Counted from the first letter of the stretch, positions 52,885 through 64,000 are shown. The stretch is DNA of 64,000 bases from an uncultured Chloroflexia bacterium (GCA_963845925.1 CAWJUA010000013.1:33507-97506); one strand, 5' to 3'. The notes: a model not told the origin generated them from the sequence alone. Made by a program: numbers and translations.

Positions 52885-54147
52885 TTGCCTGAACTCGATC
52901 CTGCCCGCCGAGCCGTCGTGACCGGCATGGGCGCGGTCATGCCCATCGGGAACGACTTCCCGACGTACTGGGCGAACCTCGTCGCCGGCAAGACCGGCAC
53001 CCGGCGGATCCAGAGCTTCGACCCATCGGGCTTCGAGGTGCAGATCGCCGCCGAGGTCCTCGACTTCGACCCGACGAAGGCCATGGACCCCAAGATGGCC
53101 CGCCGGATGACGCGGTTCATCCACTTCGCGATGGCCGCCGGCAAGGAGGCCGTCGCCGACAGCGGGATCGACTTCGGGGCGATGAGCCAGGAGCAGCGCG
53201 ATCGCGTCGGCGTCGTCGTCAATACCGGCGGCGGGGGGATCGAGGCGATCATCGACGGGACCCACACCCACGACACGAAGGGTCCACGGTTCGTGTCGGC
53301 CTTCGCGATCCCTGCGCTGTCGGGCTCGATGGGCGCCGCACTGCTCTCGATGGAGTGGGGTCTCACCGGGCCGGTCATGACCCAGGTCGCGGCGTGCGCG
53401 ACGTCGGTCATCGCGTTCCACGACGCGCTGCGGCTCATCCGGTCCGGCGAATGCGACGTCGTCCTGACCGGCGGATCCGAGGCGCCGGTCGTGCCGATGG
53501 GCATCGCCGCGCTCGCGAACATGGGCGCCTTGTCGAAGCGCAACGACGACCCCGAGTCCGCCTCGCGGCCGTTCGACGTGACTCGCGACGGATTCGTCCT
53601 GGGCGAAGGCGGCGGCGTCGTCGTGGTCGAGTCCCTTGAGCACGCGCTGAACCGCGGCGCCACGCCAGTCGCGGAGGTCATCGGCGGTGCGCTCACCGCC
53701 GACGCGTTCCACATCAGCGCGCCCGAGCCGTCGGGCCGCGGCCAGGCCCGGGCGATGACGCTGGCCCTGAAGAACGCCCAGGTCGCCCCGGACGAGATCG
53801 ACTACATCGTCGCCCACGGCACCGCGACGCCGCTCAACGACGCGACCGAGACGCGGGCGATCAAGGCCGCCTACGGCGCCCACGCCAAGAAGGTCGCGAT
53901 CAGCTCGCCGAAGTCGATGATCGGCCACCTCGTCGGCGCCGCGGGCATCGCGTCGGCGCTGGCGGGGCTGGGTGCGATCCGCGACCAGGTGATCCCGCCC
54001 ACGGCGAACCTGCGCACGCCGGACCCGGAGTGCGACCTCGACTACGTGCCGCTGACGGCGCGCAAGGCAAAGATCGAGACGGTCGCGATCAACGGCTTCG
54101 GCTTCGGCGGCCAGAACGCCGTCGCGATCTTCCGCCGCCTGGGCTAG
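52885..54147 (+). CDS. fabF: Beta-ketoacyl-ACP synthase II (second copy)
   Basis: AACATS, HGTAT, KSMIGH and FGFGGQN; its own TACAAT -10-like box at 52849. Confidence 0.92.
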
Positions 54148-56831
54148 GGCTCGACGACCAGCGTGCCGGTCATCCCGGCAGCCGCGTGGCCCGGCACCGT
54201 GCAGACGATCCGGTATGTGCCGGGTTGATCGATCCGGAAGCGGAGCGTCGTCGTCTGGCCGGGCCGGGCTGGCACGTCGACGTTCGCGAGGCCCTCGACC
54301 GTCCAGTCGTGGAACACGGGGTCGGCGTTCGTGAACGTCAGGACCGCGAAGCGGTCGGCGGTCACGTGGACCTCGCTGGGGCTGAAGCGGACGTCCTTCG
54401 CGGTGACCGCGAGTGGCGTGGCCGAGGCGTCGATCGCCCGGTCGGCCGCCATCACCGTGCCGGCGACCAACAATGAGGCGGCGGCGACCGCGATCAGGTA
54501 GCGCCCCCGTCGGAGCGTGCCGAGGACGCCGCCCCGCGTCTCGATGTGGCGCCCGCGCCGGAGGTCGAGGCCGCGCAGCCGGAGCGAGTTCGTCACGACC
54601 GCGACCGACGACATCGCCATCGCCCCCGCGGCCAGCGCCGGCCCGATCGTCACGCCGAGCGGCACGAGGAGGCCCATCGCGACCGGAATGAGCAGCAGGT
54701 TGTAGCCGAACGCCCAGAGCAGGTTCTCGCGGACGACGCTCATCGTCGCCAGTGACAGCTCGATCGCGGTCGCCACTCCGCGGGGGTCGCCGCCGACGAG
54801 CGTCACACCGGCGGCCTCGATCGCGACGTCCGCGCCGGTCCCGATCGCGAGCCCGAGATCCGCCGCGGCCAGGGCCGGCGCGTCATTGACCCCGTCGCCG
54901 ACCATCGCCACGCGCCGGCCGCCGGCCCGCAGCCGCTCGATCGCGGCGGCCTTGTCGGCGGGCAGGACGCCGGCCAGAACGTGCTCCGCCGGGATGCCGA
55001 CACGCTCCGCGACGGCGTGGGCCGTCGCCTCGCCGTCGCCGGTGATCAGCCAGCTCTCGAGCCCGGCGTCGGCGAGGCGGCGGATCGCCTCGGCCGCCTC
55101 GGGCTTGACCGGGTCGGCGATCGCGAGGACACCGGCGACGGCGCCGTCGATCGCGACCCAGGCGACGCTCCGGCCCGCGCCGGCGAGGCGCGCCGCGTCG
55201 GCGTCGAGCGGCGTCGTATCGATTCCGCGCTCGGCGAGCAGACGGCCGCTGCCGACGAGCACGTCCTGTCCGTCGACACGCCCCTCGACGCCCAGTCCGG
55301 GCAGGCTCTCGAATGCCTCGACCGCCCGGAACCCCAGCTCGTCGCGCTTCGCCCGGACGACGATCGCCGCCCCGAGCGGATGCTCGCTCGCCCGCTCCAG
55401 CGACGCCGCGAGGTCGATCAGCGCGGCGGGGTCGACGCCCGGCGCCGGCTCGACGGCGACGACCTCCGGGCGGCCCGCGGTCAGCGTGCCGGTCTTGTCG
55501 AATGCGACGATCGAGACGTGCGACGCCGCCTCGAGCGCCTCGCCGCCCCGGAACAGGATGCCGGCCTCGGCGCCGCGGCCGGTGCCGACCATGATCGCGG
55601 TCGGCGTGGCGAGGCCCATCGCGCACGGGCAGGCGACGATGACGACGCCGATGAACGCGGTCAGCGCGAGCGTCACCCGCGGCTCCGGCCCGAACAGCCA
55701 CCAGCCTGTGAACGCGGCGACCGCGAGGATCACGACCGCTGGCACGAACGCCTCGCTGATGCGGTCGGCGAGCCGCTGGATCGGCGGCTTGCTGCCCTGG
55801 GCCTGCTCGACGAGGGCGACGATCCGGGCCAGCGCCGTGTCGGCGCCGACGCGGGTAGCGCGGAACAGGAACGTCCCGGTCGTGTTGACGGTCGCCCCGA
55901 CGATCTCGTCGCCGGGACCCTTCGCGACCGGCCACGCCTCGCCGGTCAGCATCGATTCGTCGACCGCGGACGAGCCGGAGACGACGATGCCGTCGACCGG
56001 CACCCGAGCGCCGGGCCGGACGCGGAGGACGTCGCCGGGCTGGACCTCGCCGACCGGAACCTCGCGATCCTCACCGCCGGCGACGAGCCACGCGGTCTCG
56101 GGCTGGAGCCCGACGAGGCGCCGGATCGCGCCGACCGCCCGGCCCTTCGCCCGGGCCTCGAGCCAGCGACCAAGCAGGACGAGCCCGAGGATGATCGTCG
56201 AGCTGTCGAAGTAGGTCTCGGGGTGGAGGCCGGCCTGGTGGATGACCTCCGGGAACAGGGTCACGAAGACGCTGTACGCCCAGGCCGCGGTCGTGCCGAT
56301 GACGACGAGCGTGTCCATCGTCAGGCTGCCGTGGCGGAGGGCTCGCCAGGCCGCGACGTAGAACCGCCTGCCGGCCCAGACCTGGACGATCGTCGCCGGC
56401 ACGAGGACGAGCCGGTTGATGTCCTCCATCGGGATCAGGGTCTGGGGCCAGAACATCAGGACCATGATCCCGACGGCCACCGTGAGCGCGACGACCGCCT
56501 CGCGCAGGAGCCCGTGCGCGTAGCGGTCTCGTTCGGCCGCGTCGGCGTCCGCGGCTTCGCGCAACGAGCGCGCCGCCGCCGTCTCGCCCGAGGCGCGCTC
56601 GGGCTTCAGGTCGTAGCCGGCCGCGGCGATCGCTGCGACGAGCTCCGCCCGCCCGGCGGTCTCCGGCAGGTAGCGGATCGTCGCGACCTCGGTCGCGAGA
56701 TTGACCGTCGCGTCGGTCACGCCCGGTGTCTTGCGGAGGAAGCGCTCAATCCGGTTGACGCAGCTCGCGCAGGTCATGCCCTCGATCGGGAGGGCGACCG
56801 TGACGAGGGTCGAGGAAGCGGGCTCGTTCAT
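54144..56831 (-). CDS. copA: Cu(I)-translocating P1B ATPase with a C-terminal cupredoxin domain
   Basis: GMTCASC, TGE, CPC, DKTGT, SEHP, GDGVND, YN and MAMSS; tail with H...CTVPGH....M. Confidence 0.92.
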
Positions 56832-56895
56832 ACTCCCTGGGAGTATACCAGCCGCCGTCGCGCGGACGACCCTGCCAGACGGCACACTTTCGTCC

Positions 56896-57450
56896 ATGCC
56901 ATCGGTCCACGTCGCCGCCGTCGACGCCCCGTGGGGCCCGGTCCACCTCGCGGCCGGCGACCGCGGGCTCGTCGCGTGCGAGTCGATGACGCCCTACGAG
57001 CCGTTCGTGGAGCGGCTGGAGTGGCGGTTCCGGTCGGATGTCTCCGCGACCCGTCATCCGGTCCTCGACGAGGCCGTCCGCCAGCTCGAGGACTTCCTCG
57101 CCGATCGACGACGCGCGTTCGACCTGCCGATCGACCTCTCCGACCGGCCGGCGTTCGACCAGGCGGTCCTCCGGGCGGTGAGCGAAGTGCCGTGGGGCCG
57201 CGTGGCGAGCTACGGCCTGATCGCCCGGGCCATCGACCGGGCCGGCGCCGCCCGGGCGGTGGGCGGCGCCGTCGCCCGGAGCCCGATCGGGATCGTCGTC
57301 CCCTGCCACCGGATCGTCGCCGCGGACGGGTCACTGGGTGGGTATGGCGGAGACGGCGGCTGGGGGTTCGGATCGCGCGAGCAGCACCTCCGGCTGAAGC
57401 GCGAGTTGCTGCTCCGCGAGGGCGTCGATATCCCGCTGCCGCGTGGCTGA
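56896..57450 (+). CDS. ogt: Methylated-DNA-protein-cysteine methyltransferase
   Basis: RAVG, VPCHRIV and LGGY. Confidence 0.9.
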
Positions 57451-57567
57451 CACGACCGTCTCGCGGCGGGCCAGCCCGGCCGGTACACTCCGCCGAGCCA
57501 GAGGGGCAGAGGGAGTGTGCAGGAGGGCGCCCATGGCGCGCTGGACCATGTCCGAGGGCGTGCGCCC

Positions 57568-59397
57568 ATGACCGACGAACAGCCCGAGGCGGTCGCACCG
57601 ACCGGACCCGCCCCGTCGATGTTCGCGGTGTTCCGCAACCATGACTTCCGCTACCTCTGGAGCGCGCAGCTCGTCTCGACGATCGGCTCGTCACTGACCG
57701 ATCTCGCCGCGGGCATCCTCATCTTCCAGAAGACCGGTTCCGCGCTGGCCGTCGGGCTGATGCTCATGGCGACCGCGATCCCCAGCCTCTTCGTGGGACT
57801 CCTCGCCGGCGTCTTCGTCGACCGGTTCAGCCGCAAGAAGATCATGATCGCGTCGGACCTGATCCGGTCAGTGCTCGTCTTCAGCATCCCGTTCCTCATC
57901 CAGATCAACATCCTCCTGCTCTACGTGGTCGTGATCCTGGCGAGCAGCGTGAAGCAGTTCTTCGACCCGGCCCAGCAGAGCGTGCTGCCGGACGTCGCGT
58001 CGGAGGAGGAGCTCGCCGCGGCGAATGCATTCCTGTCGATCAGCTCGTTCGGCTCGACCGCGATCGGCTTCGCCGCCGCCGGGTTCCTGGCCTCGACCGG
58101 CGAGATCGCGGTCGCCTTCTACGTGGACGCGCTGACGTTCCTCATCTCGGCGGCGTGCGTCTCGTTCGTGAAAATCGCGCCGATGCTCGTCGAAGAGGAG
58201 ACGAGCGTCAGGGCGGTCGTCGCCAACCTCAAGTCGGGCGTCGGCATGCTCGTCCGAACGCCGATCCTGCGCTCGACGCTGATCGTCTTCGCGCCGGTGC
58301 TCTTCGCGTTTGGCCTGTGGAACGTGCTGCTGCTGCCGTTCGCCGTCGAGACACTCGGCGGCACCGAATTCCAGTACGGGCTCCAGGAGGGCCTGACGTC
58401 GCTCGGCTTCGTCTTCGGCAGCCTGCTGATGGCGAAGTACATCGAGCGGCTGCCCGAGGGCACCTGGATGGTGATCAGCTTCACCGTGATGGGCATCGTC
58501 GGCGTCCTGTACGGGCTCGCCACGAACATCTGGATCGCGATCGTCCTGGTCACGATCTCGGGATTTTCCCAGCCGCCGTCCTCGATCTCCCGGTCGCTTG
58601 TCCTCCAGCGCAACACGCCGCGGGAGTACCGCGGGAGGGTCTTCTCGGCGTTCTTCGTGTCGCGCGACGTGCTGTTCCTGACCGGCATGGCGGTCGCCGG
58701 CCTCGCGGACGTCATCGAGATCCGGGTGCTGATCGTGCTCTCCGCGCTGATCCTCCTCGGCGCGGCGGTGCTGACCCAGTTGATGCCCGGCCTCGGCCGG
58801 CCGGCTGCCGAGTGGCGGCGGGCGATCCAGCTGCTCCGGACCGCGCCCGCGGTGGCCGGTCCGGCAACCGTCCGGCCCGCGACGATGCTCGACTTCGACA
58901 AGCTCGCGATCCGCCTGCCGGCCCTGGCCCTGCTCGAGGAATCGCGGCGTGAGAGCTTCGTCGCCAAGGCCACGGTCCGGGAGGCCGAGGCGGGCTCGAC
59001 GATCGTCAAGCAGGGCGACGCCGGCGACGCCGCGTACTTCATCCTCGGCGGCTCGGTCGTCGCCGGGACGCCCGACGAGGACGGCTCCTACCGCTCGCTG
59101 TCCTCGATGGGCGAGGGCGACTTCTTCGGCGAGATCGCCGCGCTCACCGGCAGCCGCCGGACGGCGAATGTCGTCGCCGACCAGCCCTCGACGCTGCTCG
59201 AGGTCCCGGCCGCGACGCTCCGGAGCGTCATGGACGTCCCGGCGCTCAGCTCGCTCTTCCTGTCGACGCTGACCGAGCGGCTGACCCGGACCCAGAGCAA
59301 CGCCGACCGGCCGCGGCTCGCGAGCAACGACCAGGAGGCGCTGCGCGACCTGCGGACGCCGAAGCCGACCGTCGAGGCGCTGCCGAAGTCGTACTGA
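57568..59397 (+). CDS. MFS transporter fused to a C-terminal cNMP-binding domain
   Basis: About 12 TM segments and GVFVDRFSRK motif A; tail with GDFFGEIA and RRTANV. The start could be 57517. Confidence 0.9.
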   Translation: MTDEQPEAVAPTGPAPSMFAVFRNHDFRYLWSAQLVSTIGSSLTDLAAGILIFQKTGSALAVGLMLMATAIPSLFVGLLAGVFVDRFSRKKIMIASDLIRSVLVFSIPFLIQINILLLYVVVILASSVKQFFDPAQQSVLPDVASEEELAAANAFLSISSFGSTAIGFAAAGFLASTGEIAVAFYVDALTFLISAACVSFVKIAPMLVEEETSVRAVVANLKSGVGMLVRTPILRSTLIVFAPVLFAFGLWNVLLLPFAVETLGGTEFQYGLQEGLTSLGFVFGSLLMAKYIERLPEGTWMVISFTVMGIVGVLYGLATNIWIAIVLVTISGFSQPPSSISRSLVLQRNTPREYRGRVFSAFFVSRDVLFLTGMAVAGLADVIEIRVLIVLSALILLGAAVLTQLMPGLGRPAAEWRRAIQLLRTAPAVAGPATVRPATMLDFDKLAIRLPALALLEESRRESFVAKATVREAEAGSTIVKQGDAGDAAYFILGGSVVAGTPDEDGSYRSLSSMGEGDFFGEIAALTGSRRTANVVADQPSTLLEVPAATLRSVMDVPALSSLFLSTLTERLTRTQSNADRPRLASNDQEALRDLRTPKPTVEALPKSY

Positions 59398-59435
59398 GGC
59401 CCCACCTCGCGACGTCCGGCACCGCGGATGCCGGG

Positions 59436-59451
59436 TGTGTCGCAGTTGACA
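59436..59451 (+). promoter_or_regulatory. Putative CRP-type site TGTGT-N6-TGACA upstream of the repeat peptide gene
   Basis: Two mismatches to TGTGA-N6-TCACA; -10-like TAGGGT at 59497. Confidence 0.45.
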
Positions 59452-59559
59452 ACCCTTCGGTCGCGGGCGGCATCGGCCGCTCGCCTGCGAGTCGCGTAGG
59501 GTACGGAACACAGATCGGCAAAATGGCGAACTGGCGGACGGAAGAGGGAAGGGGCTGAC

Positions 59560-59988
59560 ATGGACATCAACCGTCGCATCCCCCACGAGCAGGCCAAGGT
59601 CACCGACGACGGGCTCCCTGACGACGTGCACGTCGTCGAGGACACCGAGGCCCACGTTCACCTGACGACCGACTCGGCCAAGGTCATGAACCGAGCTCCC
59701 GACGACGTGGGCCCTGACGACGTCCATGTCGTCGAGGACACCGAGGCCCACGTTCACCTGACGACCGACGACCTGACGGTCAACCCCGGCACCGGCGGCG
59801 ACTTCGCCCCGCGCCGGCCGTCGACCGGCGGCGAGCTCATCGACGAGAACGACGTCGAGGCCCACGTTCACCTGACGACCGACGACCTGACCGTCAACCC
59901 CGGCACCGGCGGCGACTTCGCCCCGCGCCGGCCGTCGACCGGCGGCGAATTCATCGACGAGAACGACGTCGAGGGTCACACCCAGTAG
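59560..59988 (+). CDS. Acidic repeat protein with four D-[TV]-E-[AG]-H motifs
   Basis: GAAGGGG RBS; motif spacings of 96, 114 and 114 bp; hairpin downstream. Confidence 0.8.
   Translation: MDINRRIPHEQAKVTDDGLPDDVHVVEDTEAHVHLTTDSAKVMNRAPDDVGPDDVHVVEDTEAHVHLTTDDLTVNPGTGGDFAPRRPSTGGELIDENDVEAHVHLTTDDLTVNPGTGGDFAPRRPSTGGEFIDENDVEGHTQ
59743..59979 (+). repeat. 114-bp near-identical tandem repeat in frame
   Basis: Units begin at 59743 and 59857, and a partial third unit begins at 59971. Confidence 0.9.
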
Positions 59989-60015
59989 GAACGCCTCACG
60001 TCCTTCGCCATATCG

Positions 60016-60046
60016 ACGCCCCGCCGGCCAGCCGACGGGGCGTTTC
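60016..60046 (+). terminator. Terminator-like hairpin between convergent genes
   Basis: ACGCCCCG...CGGGGCGT followed by TTC. Confidence 0.6.
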
Positions 60047-60069
60047 GCTGCCCTGCGGTCGTGGCGCGG

Positions 60070-60930
60070 TCAGCGCGCCGGCCGGTCCGTCCTCGGCTCC
60101 GTGGCCGCGTCGGCCGTCGCCGCGAGGATCGTCTTGACCTCGAACGGGCTGGCGCCGGGGTGGGTCGCCCGAATCCGCGCCGCGTAGCCCGCGATGTGCG
60201 GTGCGGCGAAGCTGTTGCCCGTTGCGACGATCCGGCCGCCGCCCTTCCAGGCGACGTCGACATCGAGCCCGTATGCCCCGAACTCGACCGGCGGCTGCGG
60301 GTTGTAGAACCAGACGCCGGGGTCGCGGACGTCGTGGGCGGCGACCGAGACGACCGCCGCGAACAGCGACGGGTAGCTGGCGACCGCGATGTTGTTCGCG
60401 GCGCAGACGAGCAGCACGCCGGCGAAGTAGGCCCGGTCGGCCAGGTCGTGGAAGACGCCGAACATCGCGTCGCTGCGCGACGACAGGCTGAGGTTGATGA
60501 TGCCGGCCCCCTGGTCGATCGCCCACTCGAGGCCGGCCGCGAACGCGGTGCCCTTGCCCCGGTTGTCGGGGCCGAGCACCCGGACCGAGACGATGTCGGC
60601 GTCCGGCGCCAGGGCATGGACGATCGACGCGACTGCCGTCCCGTGGCCGACGACGTCGACCGCATCGTCGTCGACGACCGTCGCGTCCTCGCCATCGAGC
60701 TCGACGCGGACGCTCTTCCGGAGCGCGCTACCGATCGCCGGGTGGCCGCCCTCGACGCCCGAGTCGACGACCGCGACCGTGATGCCGGCGCCCCGGCCGT
60801 CACCGAACGCCCAGTCGCGATCGAGCCGGCCTAGCGGGGCGAGGCGCTCCAGGCCGGCCCGGTGGTCGGTGGCGAACGGCGCGCTCCATGCCGGAAGCGA
60901 GCCGTCGCCGGAGGGGATCGGGCCGGTCAC
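60070..60930 (-). CDS. S8 (subtilisin-like) serine peptidase without a signal peptide
   Basis: VVDSG (Asp), HGTAV (His), AANN and GNSFAAP (Ser). Confidence 0.92.
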   Translation of the reverse strand: MTGPIPSGDGSLPAWSAPFATDHRAGLERLAPLGRLDRDWAFGDGRGAGITVAVVDSGVEGGHPAIGSALRKSVRVELDGEDATVVDDDAVDVVGHGTAVASIVHALAPDADIVSVRVLGPDNRGKGTAFAAGLEWAIDQGAGIINLSLSSRSDAMFGVFHDLADRAYFAGVLLVCAANNIAVASYPSLFAAVVSVAAHDVRDPGVWFYNPQPPVEFGAYGLDVDVAWKGGGRIVATGNSFAAPHIAGYAARIRATHPGASPFEVKTILAATADAATEPRTDRPAR

Positions 60931-61796
60931 CGCCCGGACCGGCGCCGCGACCGCGCGTCGCCTCGCTCCGCCCGCCGGACGAGGACACCGAGCAGCTCAC
61001 GGACGAGATCGAGCTCACCGGGATCAGCAGCCCGAAGGCGGGCGATCTCGTCGGCGAGGCTCCACAGCGCGCCATCCTCCTCGCGGGCCAGCATCGCGAC
61101 GGCGTCGGCGACGACCGCGTCGACGTCGCGGGCGACATCGCCGGCGCCGGACCCGCTGGCTGCGACGCCGTCCCCGGCGATGGCCGTCAGCGCCGATGCC
61201 AGCAGGCTGGCCGCATCGCGCTCGAGCCGGCTCGCCCGGATCGCGACGGCCGCCTGGCGGGCGAACACCGCGGCGAGCTCGATGTCGCGCAGGTCGAACG
61301 CGGCCTGCGACCGCCGGTCGAGGACCTCGAGCACGCCGATCGAGCCCTCGTCGTCGAGGAGTGGCACGGCGACGACGGACCGCGGCACGTAGCCGGTCTG
61401 CTCGGCGGCCGACCGGCCGAAGCGGGCGTCGTTCGCGACGTCCGAGAGCGCGAGCGGCAGGCCGGTCGAGAACACGTAGCCGGCGATCCCCTGGTCGGGC
61501 CCGATCGCCAGCCCGACGACGCCGTCGCCCTGGCTGCCGGCCGCGACCTGGAACACGAGCCGCCCCGACGCCGGGTCGTAGAGCGCGATCGAGGACGCCT
61601 CGGCGTCGAACAGGGCGACCGTCGCCTCGACGATCGAGCGCAGCAGGAGCGTCGTCGTCGGCGGGGCGAGCCGGCGGCCGGCCTCGAGGCGGAGGGCGAT
61701 CGCGCGAACAGCCTCCAGCGCGCGCGCGGCCGTCGCGTCGTCCATGGATCGCCCCGTCGCGTCGTCGGTCGGGTCGCCGCCGGCCGGACCCGTCAC
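60927..61796 (-). CDS. GAF-domain protein with no output domain
   Basis: QGIAGYV, DARF, VPL, GVLEVLD and F...D.ELA. Confidence 0.88.
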   Translation of the reverse strand: MTGPAGGDPTDDATGRSMDDATAARALEAVRAIALRLEAGRRLAPPTTTLLLRSIVEATVALFDAEASSIALYDPASGRLVFQVAAGSQGDGVVGLAIGPDQGIAGYVFSTGLPLALSDVANDARFGRSAAEQTGYVPRSVVAVPLLDDEGSIGVLEVLDRRSQAAFDLRDIELAAVFARQAAVAIRASRLERDAASLLASALTAIAGDGVAASGSGAGDVARDVDAVVADAVAMLAREEDGALWSLADEIARLRAADPGELDLVRELLGVLVRRAERGDARSRRRSGR

Positions 61797-62497
61797 CGCT
61801 CGACCGTGCGCGCCAGCCGCTCCCGGTCGGTGACGACGAGGACGTCGTGCTCGATCCGGACGAGGCCCTCCTCGGCGAGGTCCGCGAGGAGCCGGTTCAC
61901 GGACTGGCGCGAGCCGCCGATCATGCCCGCCAGCTCGGACTGGGTGTAGGGCCAGCTGATCCGGATCGCGCCGTCGGGGTCGGGCTCACACTCGACTGAG
62001 AGCCGCAGGATCCGCGACGCGAGGCGGCCGGGCAGGTCGAGGAAGTGGAGGTCCTCGACGTGGCCGGTCAGGCGGCGGATCTCCGTCGCGAGGGAGGCCA
62101 GCAGCGCCCGGCGCAGCTCCGGCTCGCTGTCGATGAGGGCGAGGAACGCGTCGCGATGGAGGACGAGCGTCTCGGTCGGCTCGATCGCGACGATCGTGGC
62201 GGAATGCGGCGCGCCGTCGAGGATCGCCAGCTCGCCGAAGAACTCGCCCGCGCCCAGAACGGCGACGATCGCCGGCTCCGCGCCCTCGTCGGACGGCAGC
62301 ACGACCTTGACCGAGCCGCTCGCGACGATGAACAGCGCATCGCCCGGGTCGCCCTGGTGGAAGACCGTCTCGGCCTTGCGGAACCGTCGGATGCGGAGCG
62401 CGGCGGCGAGGGCGTCGAGAGTGGGCTCGTCGGCGTTGCCGAACAGCCCGCAACCGCGGAGAGCCTCTCGCGCGATGGATCCGCCGAGCACGGACAA
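61793..62497 (-). CDS. Crp/Fnr-family transcriptional regulator
   Basis: GEFFGELAIL, HSAT and the HTH TQSELAGMIGGSRQSVNR; start at 62497 or 62491. Confidence 0.93.
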   Translation of the reverse strand: MSVLGGSIAREALRGCGLFGNADEPTLDALAAALRIRRFRKAETVFHQGDPGDALFIVASGSVKVVLPSDEGAEPAIVAVLGAGEFFGELAILDGAPHSATIVAIEPTETLVLHRDAFLALIDSEPELRRALLASLATEIRRLTGHVEDLHFLDLPGRLASRILRLSVECEPDPDGAIRISWPYTQSELAGMIGGSRQSVNRLLADLAEEGLVRIEHDVLVVTDRERLARTVER

Positions 62498-62578
62498 GCG
62501 ACCTCCCCTGTGCCGTTCCAGAATTCCATCCTACGCGGTGCGACGCGTTTCGGCGGACGCCTCCCGTAGACTCCGCTC

Positions 62579-64000
62579 GTGGAGACCGTCGCCTGCCCGT
62601 CATGTGGCGAGGAGAACCCAGCCCGGTTCAAGCTGTGTGGGTTCTGTGGAACCGCGCTCGCCCCGGTCCCCGAGACGGTCTTCTGCTCGAACTGCGGCGA
62701 GGAGAACCCCTCGAAGTTCCGGCTCTGCGGCTTCTGCGGCACCTCGCTCGCGACCGCGACCGCGACGCCGCCCGCAGCGGGCTCGACGATGGTCGCCGCT
62801 CCGCCGGCCGCCGCGCCCGTCGCTCCCCCGCCACCGGTCGCCGCCGCCCTGCCGCCGACCGAGGTCCGCAAGCTCGTCACCCTCGTCTTCACCGACCTCA
62901 AGGACTCGACCGCCCTGACCGCCTCGATCGACGCCGAGGCGATGAACGAGATCAAGGCCCGCTACTTCGCCGCGATGGCCGCCGAGATCGAGCGCTACGG
63001 CGGTAAGGTCGAGAAGAACATCGGCGACGCGATCATGGCGGTCTTCGGTCGCGTCCGGGCCCGCGAGGACGACGCGATCCGGGGCGTCCAGGCCGCGGCC
63101 AGCATGGTCGACACGCTCCACGTCCTCAACGAGGAGTTCGCGAAGTTCTACGGCGTCCAGCTGACGGTCCGGACCGGCGTCAACACCGGCGAGGTCGTCG
63201 CGAACACCGACGAGCACGCGACGATGAACCTCGCGACCGGCGACGCGGTCAACGTCGCCGCCCGGCTCGAGCAGAACGCGCCGGCGAACGAGGTCCTGAT
63301 CGGCGAGGTCACGTACGCGCTGGTCCGCGACTACGTCGAGGCCGAGCGCGTCGAGCTGACGCTCAAGGGCAAGGCCGAGCCGGTGCCCGCGTACCTGCTG
63401 CGGGGCGTCCACGCCACGACCGCGGTGACGGCCCACCAGGACTCGCCGTTCATCGGCCGCGAGTTCGAGATGGACATCCTGAGCGGCGCGTTCGCCGAGT
63501 CGGTCGGGCAGCGCGGAGCCCGGATCGTCACGGTCATCGGCGACGCCGGCGTCGGGAAGTCCCGGCTGATCGGCGACTTCACCCGGCGCAAGGCGAGCGA
63601 GGCGTTGATCCTCCGCGGTCGATGCCTTGCCTACGGCGACGGCATCACGTTCTGGCCGCTGACCGAGATCGTGCGCCAGGCCGCGAAGATCGCGGAGGAC
63701 GACCCGCCCGATGCCGCCCGGACGAAGATCAGCGGCCTGATCGGGGATGCCGCAGATCGTGAGGTGATCGTCGACCGCGTCGCCTCGGCTGTCGGGCTCT
63801 CGACCGGCTCGTTCGCCGTCACCGATCTCTTCTGGGGAGCCCGACGGCTCCTCGAGTCGCTCGCTGCCGGGAAGCCGCTCGTCGTCGTCGTCGACGATAT
63901 CCACTGGGCGGAGGAGACCTTCCTCGACTTCCTCACCCACCTCGCCACGGCAGTCAAGGATCGCCCGATCCTGATCGTCTGCTCGGCGCGGCCGGAGCTC
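62579..64000 (+). CDS. Double zinc ribbon, class III adenylate/guanylate cyclase and P-loop ATPase protein (runs off the window)
   Basis: Hand translation from GTG 62579: four CxxC pairs, FTDLKDST, KNIGDAIM, GVNTG, GDAVNVAARL, FIGRE, GDAGVGKS and VVDDIHWA. Confidence 0.9.
   Translation, partial: METVACPSCGEENPARFKLCGFCGTALAPVPETVFCSNCGEENPSKFRLCGFCGTSLATATATPPAAGSTMVAAPPAAAPVAPPPPVAAALPPTEVRKLVTLVFTDLKDSTALTASIDAEAMNEIKARYFAAMAAEIERYGGKVEKNIGDAIMAVFGRVRAREDDAIRGVQAAASMVDTLHVLNEEFAKFYGVQLTVRTGVNTGEVVANTDEHATMNLATGDAVNVAARLEQNAPANEVLIGEVTYALVRDYVEAERVELTLKGKAEPVPAYLLRGVHATTAVTAHQDSPFIGREFEMDILSGAFAESVGQRGARIVTVIGDAGVGKSRLIGDFTRRKASEALILRGRCLAYGDGITFWPLTEIVRQAAKIAEDDPPDAARTKISGLIGDAADREVIVDRVASAVGLSTGSFAVTDLFWGARRLLESLAAGKPLVVVVDDIHWAEETFLDFLTHLATAVKDRPILIVCSARPEL

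Follow-up and report, generated by a model that had tools for sequence, protein, structure and literature searches.

A conserved locus of repeat peptide, S8 protease, GAF protein and MFS-cNMP transporter in Chloroflexota and Actinomycetota: a candidate peptide-processing and export module with links to cyclic-nucleotide signalling

Short peptides are released from longer ribosomal precursors by proteases of the S8 (subtilisin-like) family in several described systems. In the cyanobactins, the multi-cassette precursor PatE is cut by the S8 proteases PatA and PatG; each precursor holds several cores, which are hypervariable between strains and are bounded by short conserved recognition flanks. 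Yeast alpha-factor with Kex2, and the prohormone convertases, likewise combine tandem short peptides with a fixed protease tag and release by an S8-family enzyme. Cyclic nucleotides enter the field through TIGR03896, a cyclic-nucleotide-binding bacteriocin-type transport-associated protein. Cytoplasmic members of the S8 family include the intracellular subtilisins (ISPs) of Bacillus, which are reported to have an inhibitory N-terminal LIPY/F extension (PMC6220982). The combination of a ribosomal-peptide precursor, an S8 protease and an exporter is thus a known theme. Here we describe a locus at positions 57,568 to 64,000 of a 64,000-nucleotide stretch of DNA from an uncultured Chloroflexia bacterium (GCA_963845925.1, CAWJUA010000013.1:33507-97506; the whole stretch is called the window), in which an S8 protease and a stand-alone GAF protein lie beside a small repeat protein and a major facilitator superfamily (MFS) transporter that carries a cyclic nucleotide monophosphate (cNMP)-binding domain. 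New are the peptide family, its tag, the lack of enzymes that would modify the peptide, and control by cyclic nucleotides at three or four levels.

An earlier note on this DNA had described six adjacent genes, among them a translationally coupled Crp-GAF-S8 operon and a divergent cyclase gene. All of this is confirmed (Table 1), with a GTGA stop/start overlap at both the Crp/GAF and the GAF/S8 junction. The core of the locus is S8, GAF, the motif peptide and MFS-cNMP, and its regulators are exchangeable. That the core genes are functionally linked we regard as very nearly certain. The fuller interpretation, to which we give about even chances, sees in the locus a representative of a conserved module for peptide processing and export that is tied to cyclic-nucleotide signalling.

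The gene neighbourhood was compared in two sets of loci. The Limnocylindria set consists of 80 loci around S8 homologues of 58–80% identity, 56 of them with at least 3.5 kb on each side. Genes were counted by tblastn and not from gene calls based on third-position GC content (GC3), which mis-called some loci; for the MFS a single alignment had to reach the cNMP domain, and a motif open reading frame (ORF) was a small ORF with at least two [DE]xE[AG]H motifs, within 3 kb. GAF is present in all 56 loci, Crp in 49, the motif ORF in 37, MFS-cNMP in 36 and the cyclase in 15; the motif ORF occurs in 45 of all 80 loci fetched. The second set comprises 80 loci from a Gaiellaceae S8 query, 57 of which have enough flank. 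These have GAF in 57, MFS-cNMP in 54, the motif ORF in 43, the cyclase in 5 and Crp in 2. When all called neighbours were clustered, the clusters common to the Limnocylindria and Gaiellaceae were MFS, S8, GAF, Crp-like and cyclase only. GAF adjoins S8 in every locus with enough flank (56/56 Limnocylindria, 57/57 Gaiellaceae and 14/14 more distant Chloroflexota).

The arrangement is not constant. Among the Limnocylindria the peptide gene is found in three positions, namely convergent to S8, upstream of crp, and between crp and GAF (loci L068 and L075). The 37 loci with a motif ORF include 23 with one convergent downstream of S8 and 19 with one upstream of crp on the same strand, 5 having both, and the MFS gene can lie on either side of the operon. 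In the Gaiellaceae the order is S8-GAF, opposite-strand peptide and MFS, with S8 and GAF reversed relative to the window. The earlier note had staked its proposal on the genes being co-conserved in other genomes; S8, GAF, peptide and MFS-cNMP do co-occur, in two phyla and despite this rearrangement.

A further search started from the motif alone. A DNA pattern of two DVEGH motifs 33–63 nt apart was found in at least 122 stretches, and 80 of these were analysed together with 2-kb flanks. Homologues of S8 or GAF were present at a distance of no more than 2 kb in 26 of 40 loci from Actinomycetota, 22 of 34 from Chloroflexota and none of 6 from other phyla, the phylum being taken from record titles; the last six are mostly out-of-frame chance matches. 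The Gaiellaceae have in addition an extracytoplasmic function (ECF) sigma factor (50 loci) and an 85-residue NHLP-clan protein (46 loci) upstream of S8. The latter is 85–89 residues long in Gaiellaceae and Miltoncostaea, scores 38 bits against NF038399 (cut-off 40), and together with the sigma factor takes the place of Crp; examples are loci L204–L283 (L209:5505-6083, L206:6084-6341) and L298 (4414-4950 and 6587-6853). No cluster of modification enzymes is conserved with the module in either Limnocylindria or Gaiellaceae, although such enzymes could be encoded elsewhere, and the module loci lack the dedicated modification enzyme that would make them clusters of ribosomally synthesised and post-translationally modified peptides (RiPPs) in the strict sense. 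S8 matches at an E value of 1e-60 or better occur in 44 of 401 evenly sampled Chloroflexota genomes (including the window's own and the unpublished G145), and in 5 of 23 genomes of the window's own family. This distribution marks the module as accessory rather than core.

The small ORF of the window appears to be a genuine gene, with a GC3 of 0.92 compared with 0.93–0.95 in adjacent genes. The purine-rich stretch GGAAGAGGGAAGGGG directly precedes its ATG, and a database search gave 166 homologues, all of them free of Pfam domains. A 114-bp unit occurs twice within the gene with 97% identity, and the protein has four motifs (DTEAH, DTEAH, DVEAH and DVEGH), each of which closes a unit, the last of them 2 residues before the stop. 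Scans of 11 motif peptides (the window's and ten others) against Pfam and NCBIfam gave no family matches, and a protein atlas search with the window peptide found only unnamed clusters, all below 0.9. Signal peptides are absent from both the precursor and S8, as judged by reading their sequences. Pieces of the peptide gene with 1–3 differences (59516-59666, 59636-59761, 59790-59933 and 59856-60054) are present in contigs of RNA libraries from four soil runs, two of which (X15 and X16) are apparently one data set; the depth is 2–5 and DNA carry-over is possible, and these pieces are not counted as proof of transcription. One such contig (X15, the same in X16) joins 59645 to 59856, omitting 210 nt of the repeat region. 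This suggests variants of repeat number in natural populations, and the homologues range from 101 to 145 residues.

A six-frame scan of the whole 3.98-Mb genome found two ORFs of less than 400 residues with at least two motifs, one of them the window peptide. The other (G000:C18:184268-184561) carries DTEAH twice, with RLA[AS]N[DE]NET[TV]V after each copy, and has no S8 or GAF homologue on that contig stretch; the same longer motif, DVEGHRLAANDNETV, is found in locus L200 (253-561). There is also a class of larger Chloroflexota proteins (L090, L116, L146, L148, L162, L171, L182 and L187) with two DDVEGH motifs, each followed by a strand-like hydrophobic sequence (DDVEGHALTLHF...). These have a predicted membrane segment and no S8 or GAF gene within 2 kb; they may be further substrates, or the motif may serve an unrelated purpose in them.

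The motif was derived from 488 examples in 150 ORFs, a sample partly chosen by the motif itself. The consensus is acidic-acidic-D-V(90%)/T-E-G(97%)-H, followed by a variable stretch rich in Gly, Arg, Ser, Ala and Lys. From clade to clade these spacers show no relationship (GHKVKAVEDE, SKPRATEGISKPRAS and LPGTGGDFRRPSGGGE are examples), while within the window's clade the unit LTVNPGTGGDFAPRRPSTGGEFIDENDVEGH is kept across 38 close relatives, and paralogous peptide genes of one locus carry an identical spacer (L010, L026). In the alignment of the window's clade the internal motif is invariant, whereas 28 of 37 sequences have an intact terminal motif and 9 a degenerate one (mostly by a change of H to R followed by a stop), with one more unreadable. 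An invariant internal motif and a decaying terminal one fit processing sites between units, and not the motif as the functional end-product itself. Those peptide genes that lie upstream of crp (as at L010:5888-6280 and L026:5907-6275) also have a conserved basic tail of about 40 residues, ..NP.L...LARARE.[DE]IQRNL......EA.R.HKK, in contrast to the convergent type, which has no such tail and ends in ..SPSSRGE or directly after the last motif.

Independent evidence came from Streptomyces. A protein search of plasmid records with an actinobacterial S8 matched two records. That of Miltoncostaea oceani encodes a sigma factor, S8, GAF, an 89-residue protein, an MBL hydrolase and an MFS protein. That of Streptomyces sp. 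NBC_00184 has six genes overlapping end to end: a radical SAM protein, an iron-containing redox enzyme, a 69-residue 'aroma-sacti cluster domain-containing protein', a 1052-residue cyclase, S8 and GAF. Compared with the window's proteins, this S8 has 45% identity and this cyclase 33% over 953 residues, zinc ribbon included. The 69-residue protein ends ...RLDAAEPEVQAH-SEIAGGALF. It scores 73.9 bits against NF045560 (cut-off 30) in a match that ends exactly at the His of PEVQAH, leaving nine residues, and it also matches the StsA-related sactipeptide precursors more weakly. The sequence P-E-V-Q-A-H is invariant in 13 of 13 homologues. The cyclase, S8 and GAF genes lie directly downstream in 48 of 52 aroma-sacti loci, the contigs of the other 4 ending too early. 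Ahead of the precursor in one locus (L303) are genes for a radical SAM protein, a haem-oxygenase-like protein and a SARP regulator.

In a quick maximum-likelihood tree built from 79 S8 proteins (midpoint-rooted, with SH-aLRT support only and two long branches flagged), those of Streptomyces fall in a single clade (support 99), which is nested (97) among S8s of Gaiellaceae and Miltoncostaea that have DVEGH-peptide neighbours. Judged by gene content, a close relative of the window's S8, with its GAF and cyclase, thus serves a biosynthetic-type cluster whose precursor has the same kind of tag at the end of its leader. We have no better argument for the tag as the site recognised by S8, or for the cyclase as a partner of the S8-GAF pair. 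We conclude that [DE]-V-[EQ]-[GA]-H is likely to be the cleavage tag of this S8 clade, and that the peptide of the window is probably an S8 substrate. The earlier note had S8 cutting the peptide into units; we infer such cleavage indirectly, from the PEVQAH-ending leader beside a related S8 and from the decay of the terminal motif.

The S8 protein is a confident member of its family (Pfam PF00082, 102.3 bits against a cut-off of 21.8). The triad D56/H96/S240 and the oxyanion residue N180 do not vary in an alignment of 23 sequences from both phyla, and neither does the N-terminal motif LPAWSxPF. An AlphaFold2 model (pLDDT 90.4) has the subtilisin fold, the top Foldseek match being subtilisin BPN' (6ube_S, E 3e-18). 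More specific families fit less well. QhpE (NF049966), among the two best NCBIfam matches (E 2.7e-32), gives 111.9 bits against a cut-off of 165. Mycosin (TIGR03921; 116.5 against 278.75 bits, with no ESX genes among the conserved neighbours) and the PatA/PatG cyanobactin protease (TIGR03895; 29.8 against 421.05 bits) were rejected. The GAF protein scores 66.3 bits against PF01590 and has the GAF fold in its AlphaFold2 model (pLDDT 82.5); it consists of a GAF domain and C-terminal helices, with no output domain. Its nearest solved chains include cAMP-bound Lcd1 (5w10; 28% identity, TM 0.70), PDE2A, PDE10A and CyaB2, and also haem-binding and other GAFs. Prediction of a complex of S8 with peptide residues 66–142 gave an ipSAE of 0.01 in both runs, which had no control runs, and is weighed neither way; in these runs the peptide was modelled with a pLDDT below 50.

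The remaining genes point to cyclic nucleotides. The Crp protein has the Crp/FNR architecture (PF00027, 93.1 bits; PF13545, 59.3 bits), is not the E. coli CRP equivalog (102.5 against 266 bits), and has a paralogue of 55% identity elsewhere in the genome. The palindrome TGTGTCGCAGTTGACA is the sole match with at most one mismatch to TGTSA-N6-TSACA in the 64-kb window, the whole genome having 41. Related loci totalling 1.47 Mb contain 85 sites of this kind, 58 of them no more than 400 nt upstream of the first motif of a peptide gene, and the density of TGTGA-N6-TCACA (at most two mismatches) rises from an overall 0.077 per kb to 0.57 per kb upstream of the peptide genes; the counts include loci fetched twice and are not independent. 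Actinobacterial sites upstream of peptide genes are perfect TGTCA-N6-TGACA. This pattern supports control of the peptide gene by some Crp-family protein, in either direction. The earlier statement that Crp induces the peptide is supported by the conserved palindrome, which does not give the sign of the regulation.

The cyclase is of class III (PF00211, 72.2 bits against a cut-off of 21.9). The TOMM system kinase/cyclase TIGR03903 was tried for it and rejected (154 against 705.75 bits). It is the weakest member of the module: it is a neighbour in 50 of 52 Streptomyces-type loci, but only an occasional one in Limnocylindria (15/56) and Gaiellaceae (5/57). The transporter is an EntS/Mef-like MFS protein (MFS_1, 112.5 bits; MFS_3, 91.6 bits; both above cut-off) with its cNMP-binding domain at residues 488–573. 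All of its NCBIfam matches are below the family cut-offs, including the EntS equivalog (94.5 against 324). All 10 neighbour transporters that were tested, drawn from the two phyla, share this fusion of MFS with cNMP, even at about 25% identity.

On the basis of these observations, we hypothesise the following mechanism. A cNMP, probably made by the divergent STAND-type cyclase, would activate Crp at TGTGTCGCAGTTGACA and so control the repeat-protein gene. The precursor would be made in the cytoplasm, where S8, with its translationally coupled and probably gating GAF partner, would recognise acidic-D-[VT]-E-[GA]-H at the end of each unit and cut at or just after this tag, to give several short linear peptides per precursor. 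The MFS protein may then carry the peptides out, a step on which we are evenly divided, and its cytoplasmic cNMP-binding domain would tie transport to the same second messenger. Outside the cell, the peptides are candidates for a species-specific signal or a metal-binding peptide. In a bolder version, cleavage between V and E would give products that start with E-G-H, an ATCUN-type (NH2-X-X-His) site for Cu or Ni, and these products would be peptide metallophores.

Several observations weigh against this interpretation. Genes for O6-methylguanine methyltransferase (OGT) and CopA are also syntenic in Limnocylindria; part of the local conservation is then plain synteny, and conservation within this group alone is weak evidence, to which the rearrangements add more. 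The motif ORF is found in only 37 of the 56 Limnocylindria loci and 43 of the 57 from Gaiellaceae, and the strict MFS test was passed in only 36 of the former. Among 14 distant Chloroflexota S8 loci (43–53% identity), an ORF with at least two motifs is present in 3 and a single-motif ORF in 1, but 10 GAF-S8 pairs (L286–L293, L295 and L296) have no nearby motif ORF. The double-DVEGH pattern is nowhere in the five genomes tested among these ten, and TRF and composition scans found no other repeat peptides beside the ten pairs. In the tree, the ten S8s form a separate clade (99), while the four with a motif ORF fall within the peptide-associated clades; the GAF-S8 pair is thus older or broader than the peptide. 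In Streptomyces the tail SEIAGGALF is as invariant as the aroma-sacti leader, so that the border between leader and core rests on the end of NF045560 alone. The Crp-box counts, as noted, are not independent. A consensus scan of 57000–64000 found no promoters and no terminators; it missed the inverted repeat of Table 1, which on reading the sequence is a possible bidirectional terminator, because the T-run is too short.

The peptide-less pairs would also fit a different proposal, that the repeat proteins stay inside the cell as regulators (multivalent pseudo-substrates, decoys or degron carriers) which titrate or time GAF-S8, the MFS protein moving something else. The motif as the only element conserved across clades would fit it too, and so would the ECF sigma factor and 85-residue NHLP-clan protein upstream of the Gaiellaceae S8, which suggest a circuit of regulatory proteolysis and on which the peptide could act. 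We nevertheless consider it rather unlikely. MFS-cNMP adjoins the peptide gene in both phyla (54/57 in Gaiellaceae, with the fused architecture in all ten transporters tested), mere linkers would not be expected to be conserved within clades and identical between paralogues, and the related Streptomyces S8 clade serves a biosynthetic-type cluster. Less probable again is that the repeat proteins are disordered, acidic and His-bearing metal-binding or hydrophilin-like stress proteins, turned over by S8 in a cAMP-controlled homeostasis of metals or desiccation. The acidic runs with one His per unit, the His-rich spacers of some loci (L075, L297), the nearby CopA gene in Limnocylindria and the low pLDDT of the peptide in the docking runs would all suit such a role. 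On the other hand, the exact conservation of D-V-E-G-H points to recognition by a protein rather than to loose metal binding, the terminal motif decays, the actinobacterial loci lack CopA and OGT, for which clustering showed nothing shared, and the same tag closes the leader of a RiPP-like precursor.

The syntenic region among Limnocylindria extends beyond OGT and CopA to upstream housekeeping genes, as would be expected if adjacency were simply inherited with no functional coupling. We give this very little credence: the core recurs in another phylum with different order and flanks, the MFS and peptide genes switch sides yet stay attached, and the distribution is patchy even within the family. 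Nor are the actinobacterial loci readily explained as mis-binned Limnocylindria DNA, since records from cultured Geodermatophilus, Miltoncostaea and Streptomyces argue against it. A processing and export module remains our preferred explanation for the locus, whose features are collected in Table 1.

Table 1. Features of the locus, with positions counted from the first letter of the window
Feature	Position	Strand	Remarks
MFS transporter with C-terminal cNMP_binding domain	57517 (probable start ATG 57568)..59397	+	Pfam MFS_1/MFS_3
Crp/FNR-type palindrome TGTGTCGCAGTTGACA	59436..59451		first base 124 nt upstream of peptide ATG
Repeat-protein ORF, 142 aa, acidic, His-bearing	59560..59988	+	candidate multi-unit precursor
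GC-rich inverted repeat ACGCCCCG ... CGGGGCGT, then TTT	60016..60043		between convergent peptide and S8 genes
Peptidase_S8, 286 aa, signal-less	60070..60930	-	proposed processing protease
Stand-alone GAF protein	60927..61796	-	proposed sensor/regulator of S8
Crp-family regulator, cNMP_binding + HTH_Crp_2	61793..62497	-	first gene of Crp-GAF-S8 operon
Double zinc ribbon / class III cyclase / AAA_16 STAND / TPR, N-terminal 474 aa	62579..64000	+	divergent from crp

The cyclase gene extends beyond the end of the window, the full protein having 1112 residues with a TPR tail. On the other side of the locus, the longest OGT-like ORF (56701-57450) overlaps the 5' end of a divergent CopA-type ATPase ORF (54144-56897) by about 200 nt, and one of these two genes probably starts further in.

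Literature searches, which covered material outside subscription journals and supplements, found nothing on the DVEGH motif, the peptides or the NCBI-named aroma-sacti cluster, nothing relevant on the combination of cNMP-binding, MFS, subtilisin, GAF and precursor peptide, and no description of MFS-cNMP function for Rv3239c/Rv3728. If the proposal is correct, bacteria would have a new route to secreted peptides, in which a cytoplasmic protease resembling the convertases cuts unmodified precursors with many copies, and the exporter is directly gated by a second messenger. The MFS-cNMP fusions, which are widespread but uncharacterised, would gain a function, as would stand-alone GAF proteins and the cyclase-STAND proteins beside biosynthetic clusters, and a portable protease tag would be at hand. 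The module is spread over hundreds of mostly uncultured soil species in two phyla, and is made testable by its cultured carriers (Geodermatophilus sp. CPCC 205761, Miltoncostaea oceani SCSIO 61214 and many Streptomyces).

Among known systems, the aroma-sacti clusters (NF045560, and the related NF045559, StsA-related sactipeptide RiPP) are similar in having the trio of zinc-ribbon cyclase-STAND, S8 and GAF in one operon, with identities to the window of 43–48% for S8, 37–47% for GAF and 34–41% for the cyclase, and a small precursor with [DE]-V-[EQ]-[GA]-H in the form PEVQAH. They differ in encoding radical SAM enzymes, haem-oxygenase-like proteins and a SARP regulator, with no Crp seen, in having one motif with a 9-residue tail where the window peptide has repeats, and in an MFS match, irrespective of a cNMP domain, in only 6 of 52 loci. 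The precursors share with the motif peptides the pentapeptide tag only: neither the window peptide nor the ten others gave any NCBIfam match at E 0.01 or better, NF045560 (cut-off 30 bits) included. The signalling families of Haft from RiPP contexts, TIGR03903 and TIGR03896, also place cyclase-STAND or cNMP-binding domains beside ribosomal-peptide export; the window gives weak matches only (154 against 705.75 and 32–34 against 161 bits), lacks the kinase domain, and has its cNMP domain fused to the MFS protein and not free-standing.

Two kinds of cytoplasmic subtilase are comparable with S8. QhpE, which acts in the maturation of quinohemoprotein amine dehydrogenase, is likewise small and signal-less and processes a ribosomal peptide in the cytoplasm, but the window module has no neighbours of the qhpC/qhpD type. 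The ISPs resemble S8 as cytoplasmic subtilases with a short conserved N-terminal extension and no classical prodomain. S8 has no hydrophobic N-terminus that could be read from its sequence, and its conserved motif is LPAWSxPF rather than LIPY; it also has a GAF protein and a peptide of its own, whereas ISPs are general stationary-phase proteases.

The cyanobactins and the convertases offer parallels in organisation. Cyanobactins share several cores in one precursor, short conserved tags and a subtilisin-like protease. The locus described here lacks a macrocyclase insert, a heterocyclase and DUF domains, its motif is another one, and cyanobactins are not known to be wired to cNMP. The widest generalisation, which is possible although we would sooner doubt it than assume it, is that [DE]-V-[EQ]-[GA]-H is the universal cleavage tag of one clade of cytoplasmic GAF-gated subtilases, by which Chloroflexota and Actinomycetota of soils would dice polyprotein-like precursors into species-specific linear peptides, many copies from each, for export by a cyclic-nucleotide-gated MFS. 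The module would then be a bacterial counterpart of Kex2 and prohormone-convertase processing, producing pheromone-like signals under the control of a second messenger. The convertase systems are eukaryotic, work in the secretory pathway and use a dibasic tag; the module would instead use a cytoplasmic protease and an acidic, His-ending tag, with export following cleavage.

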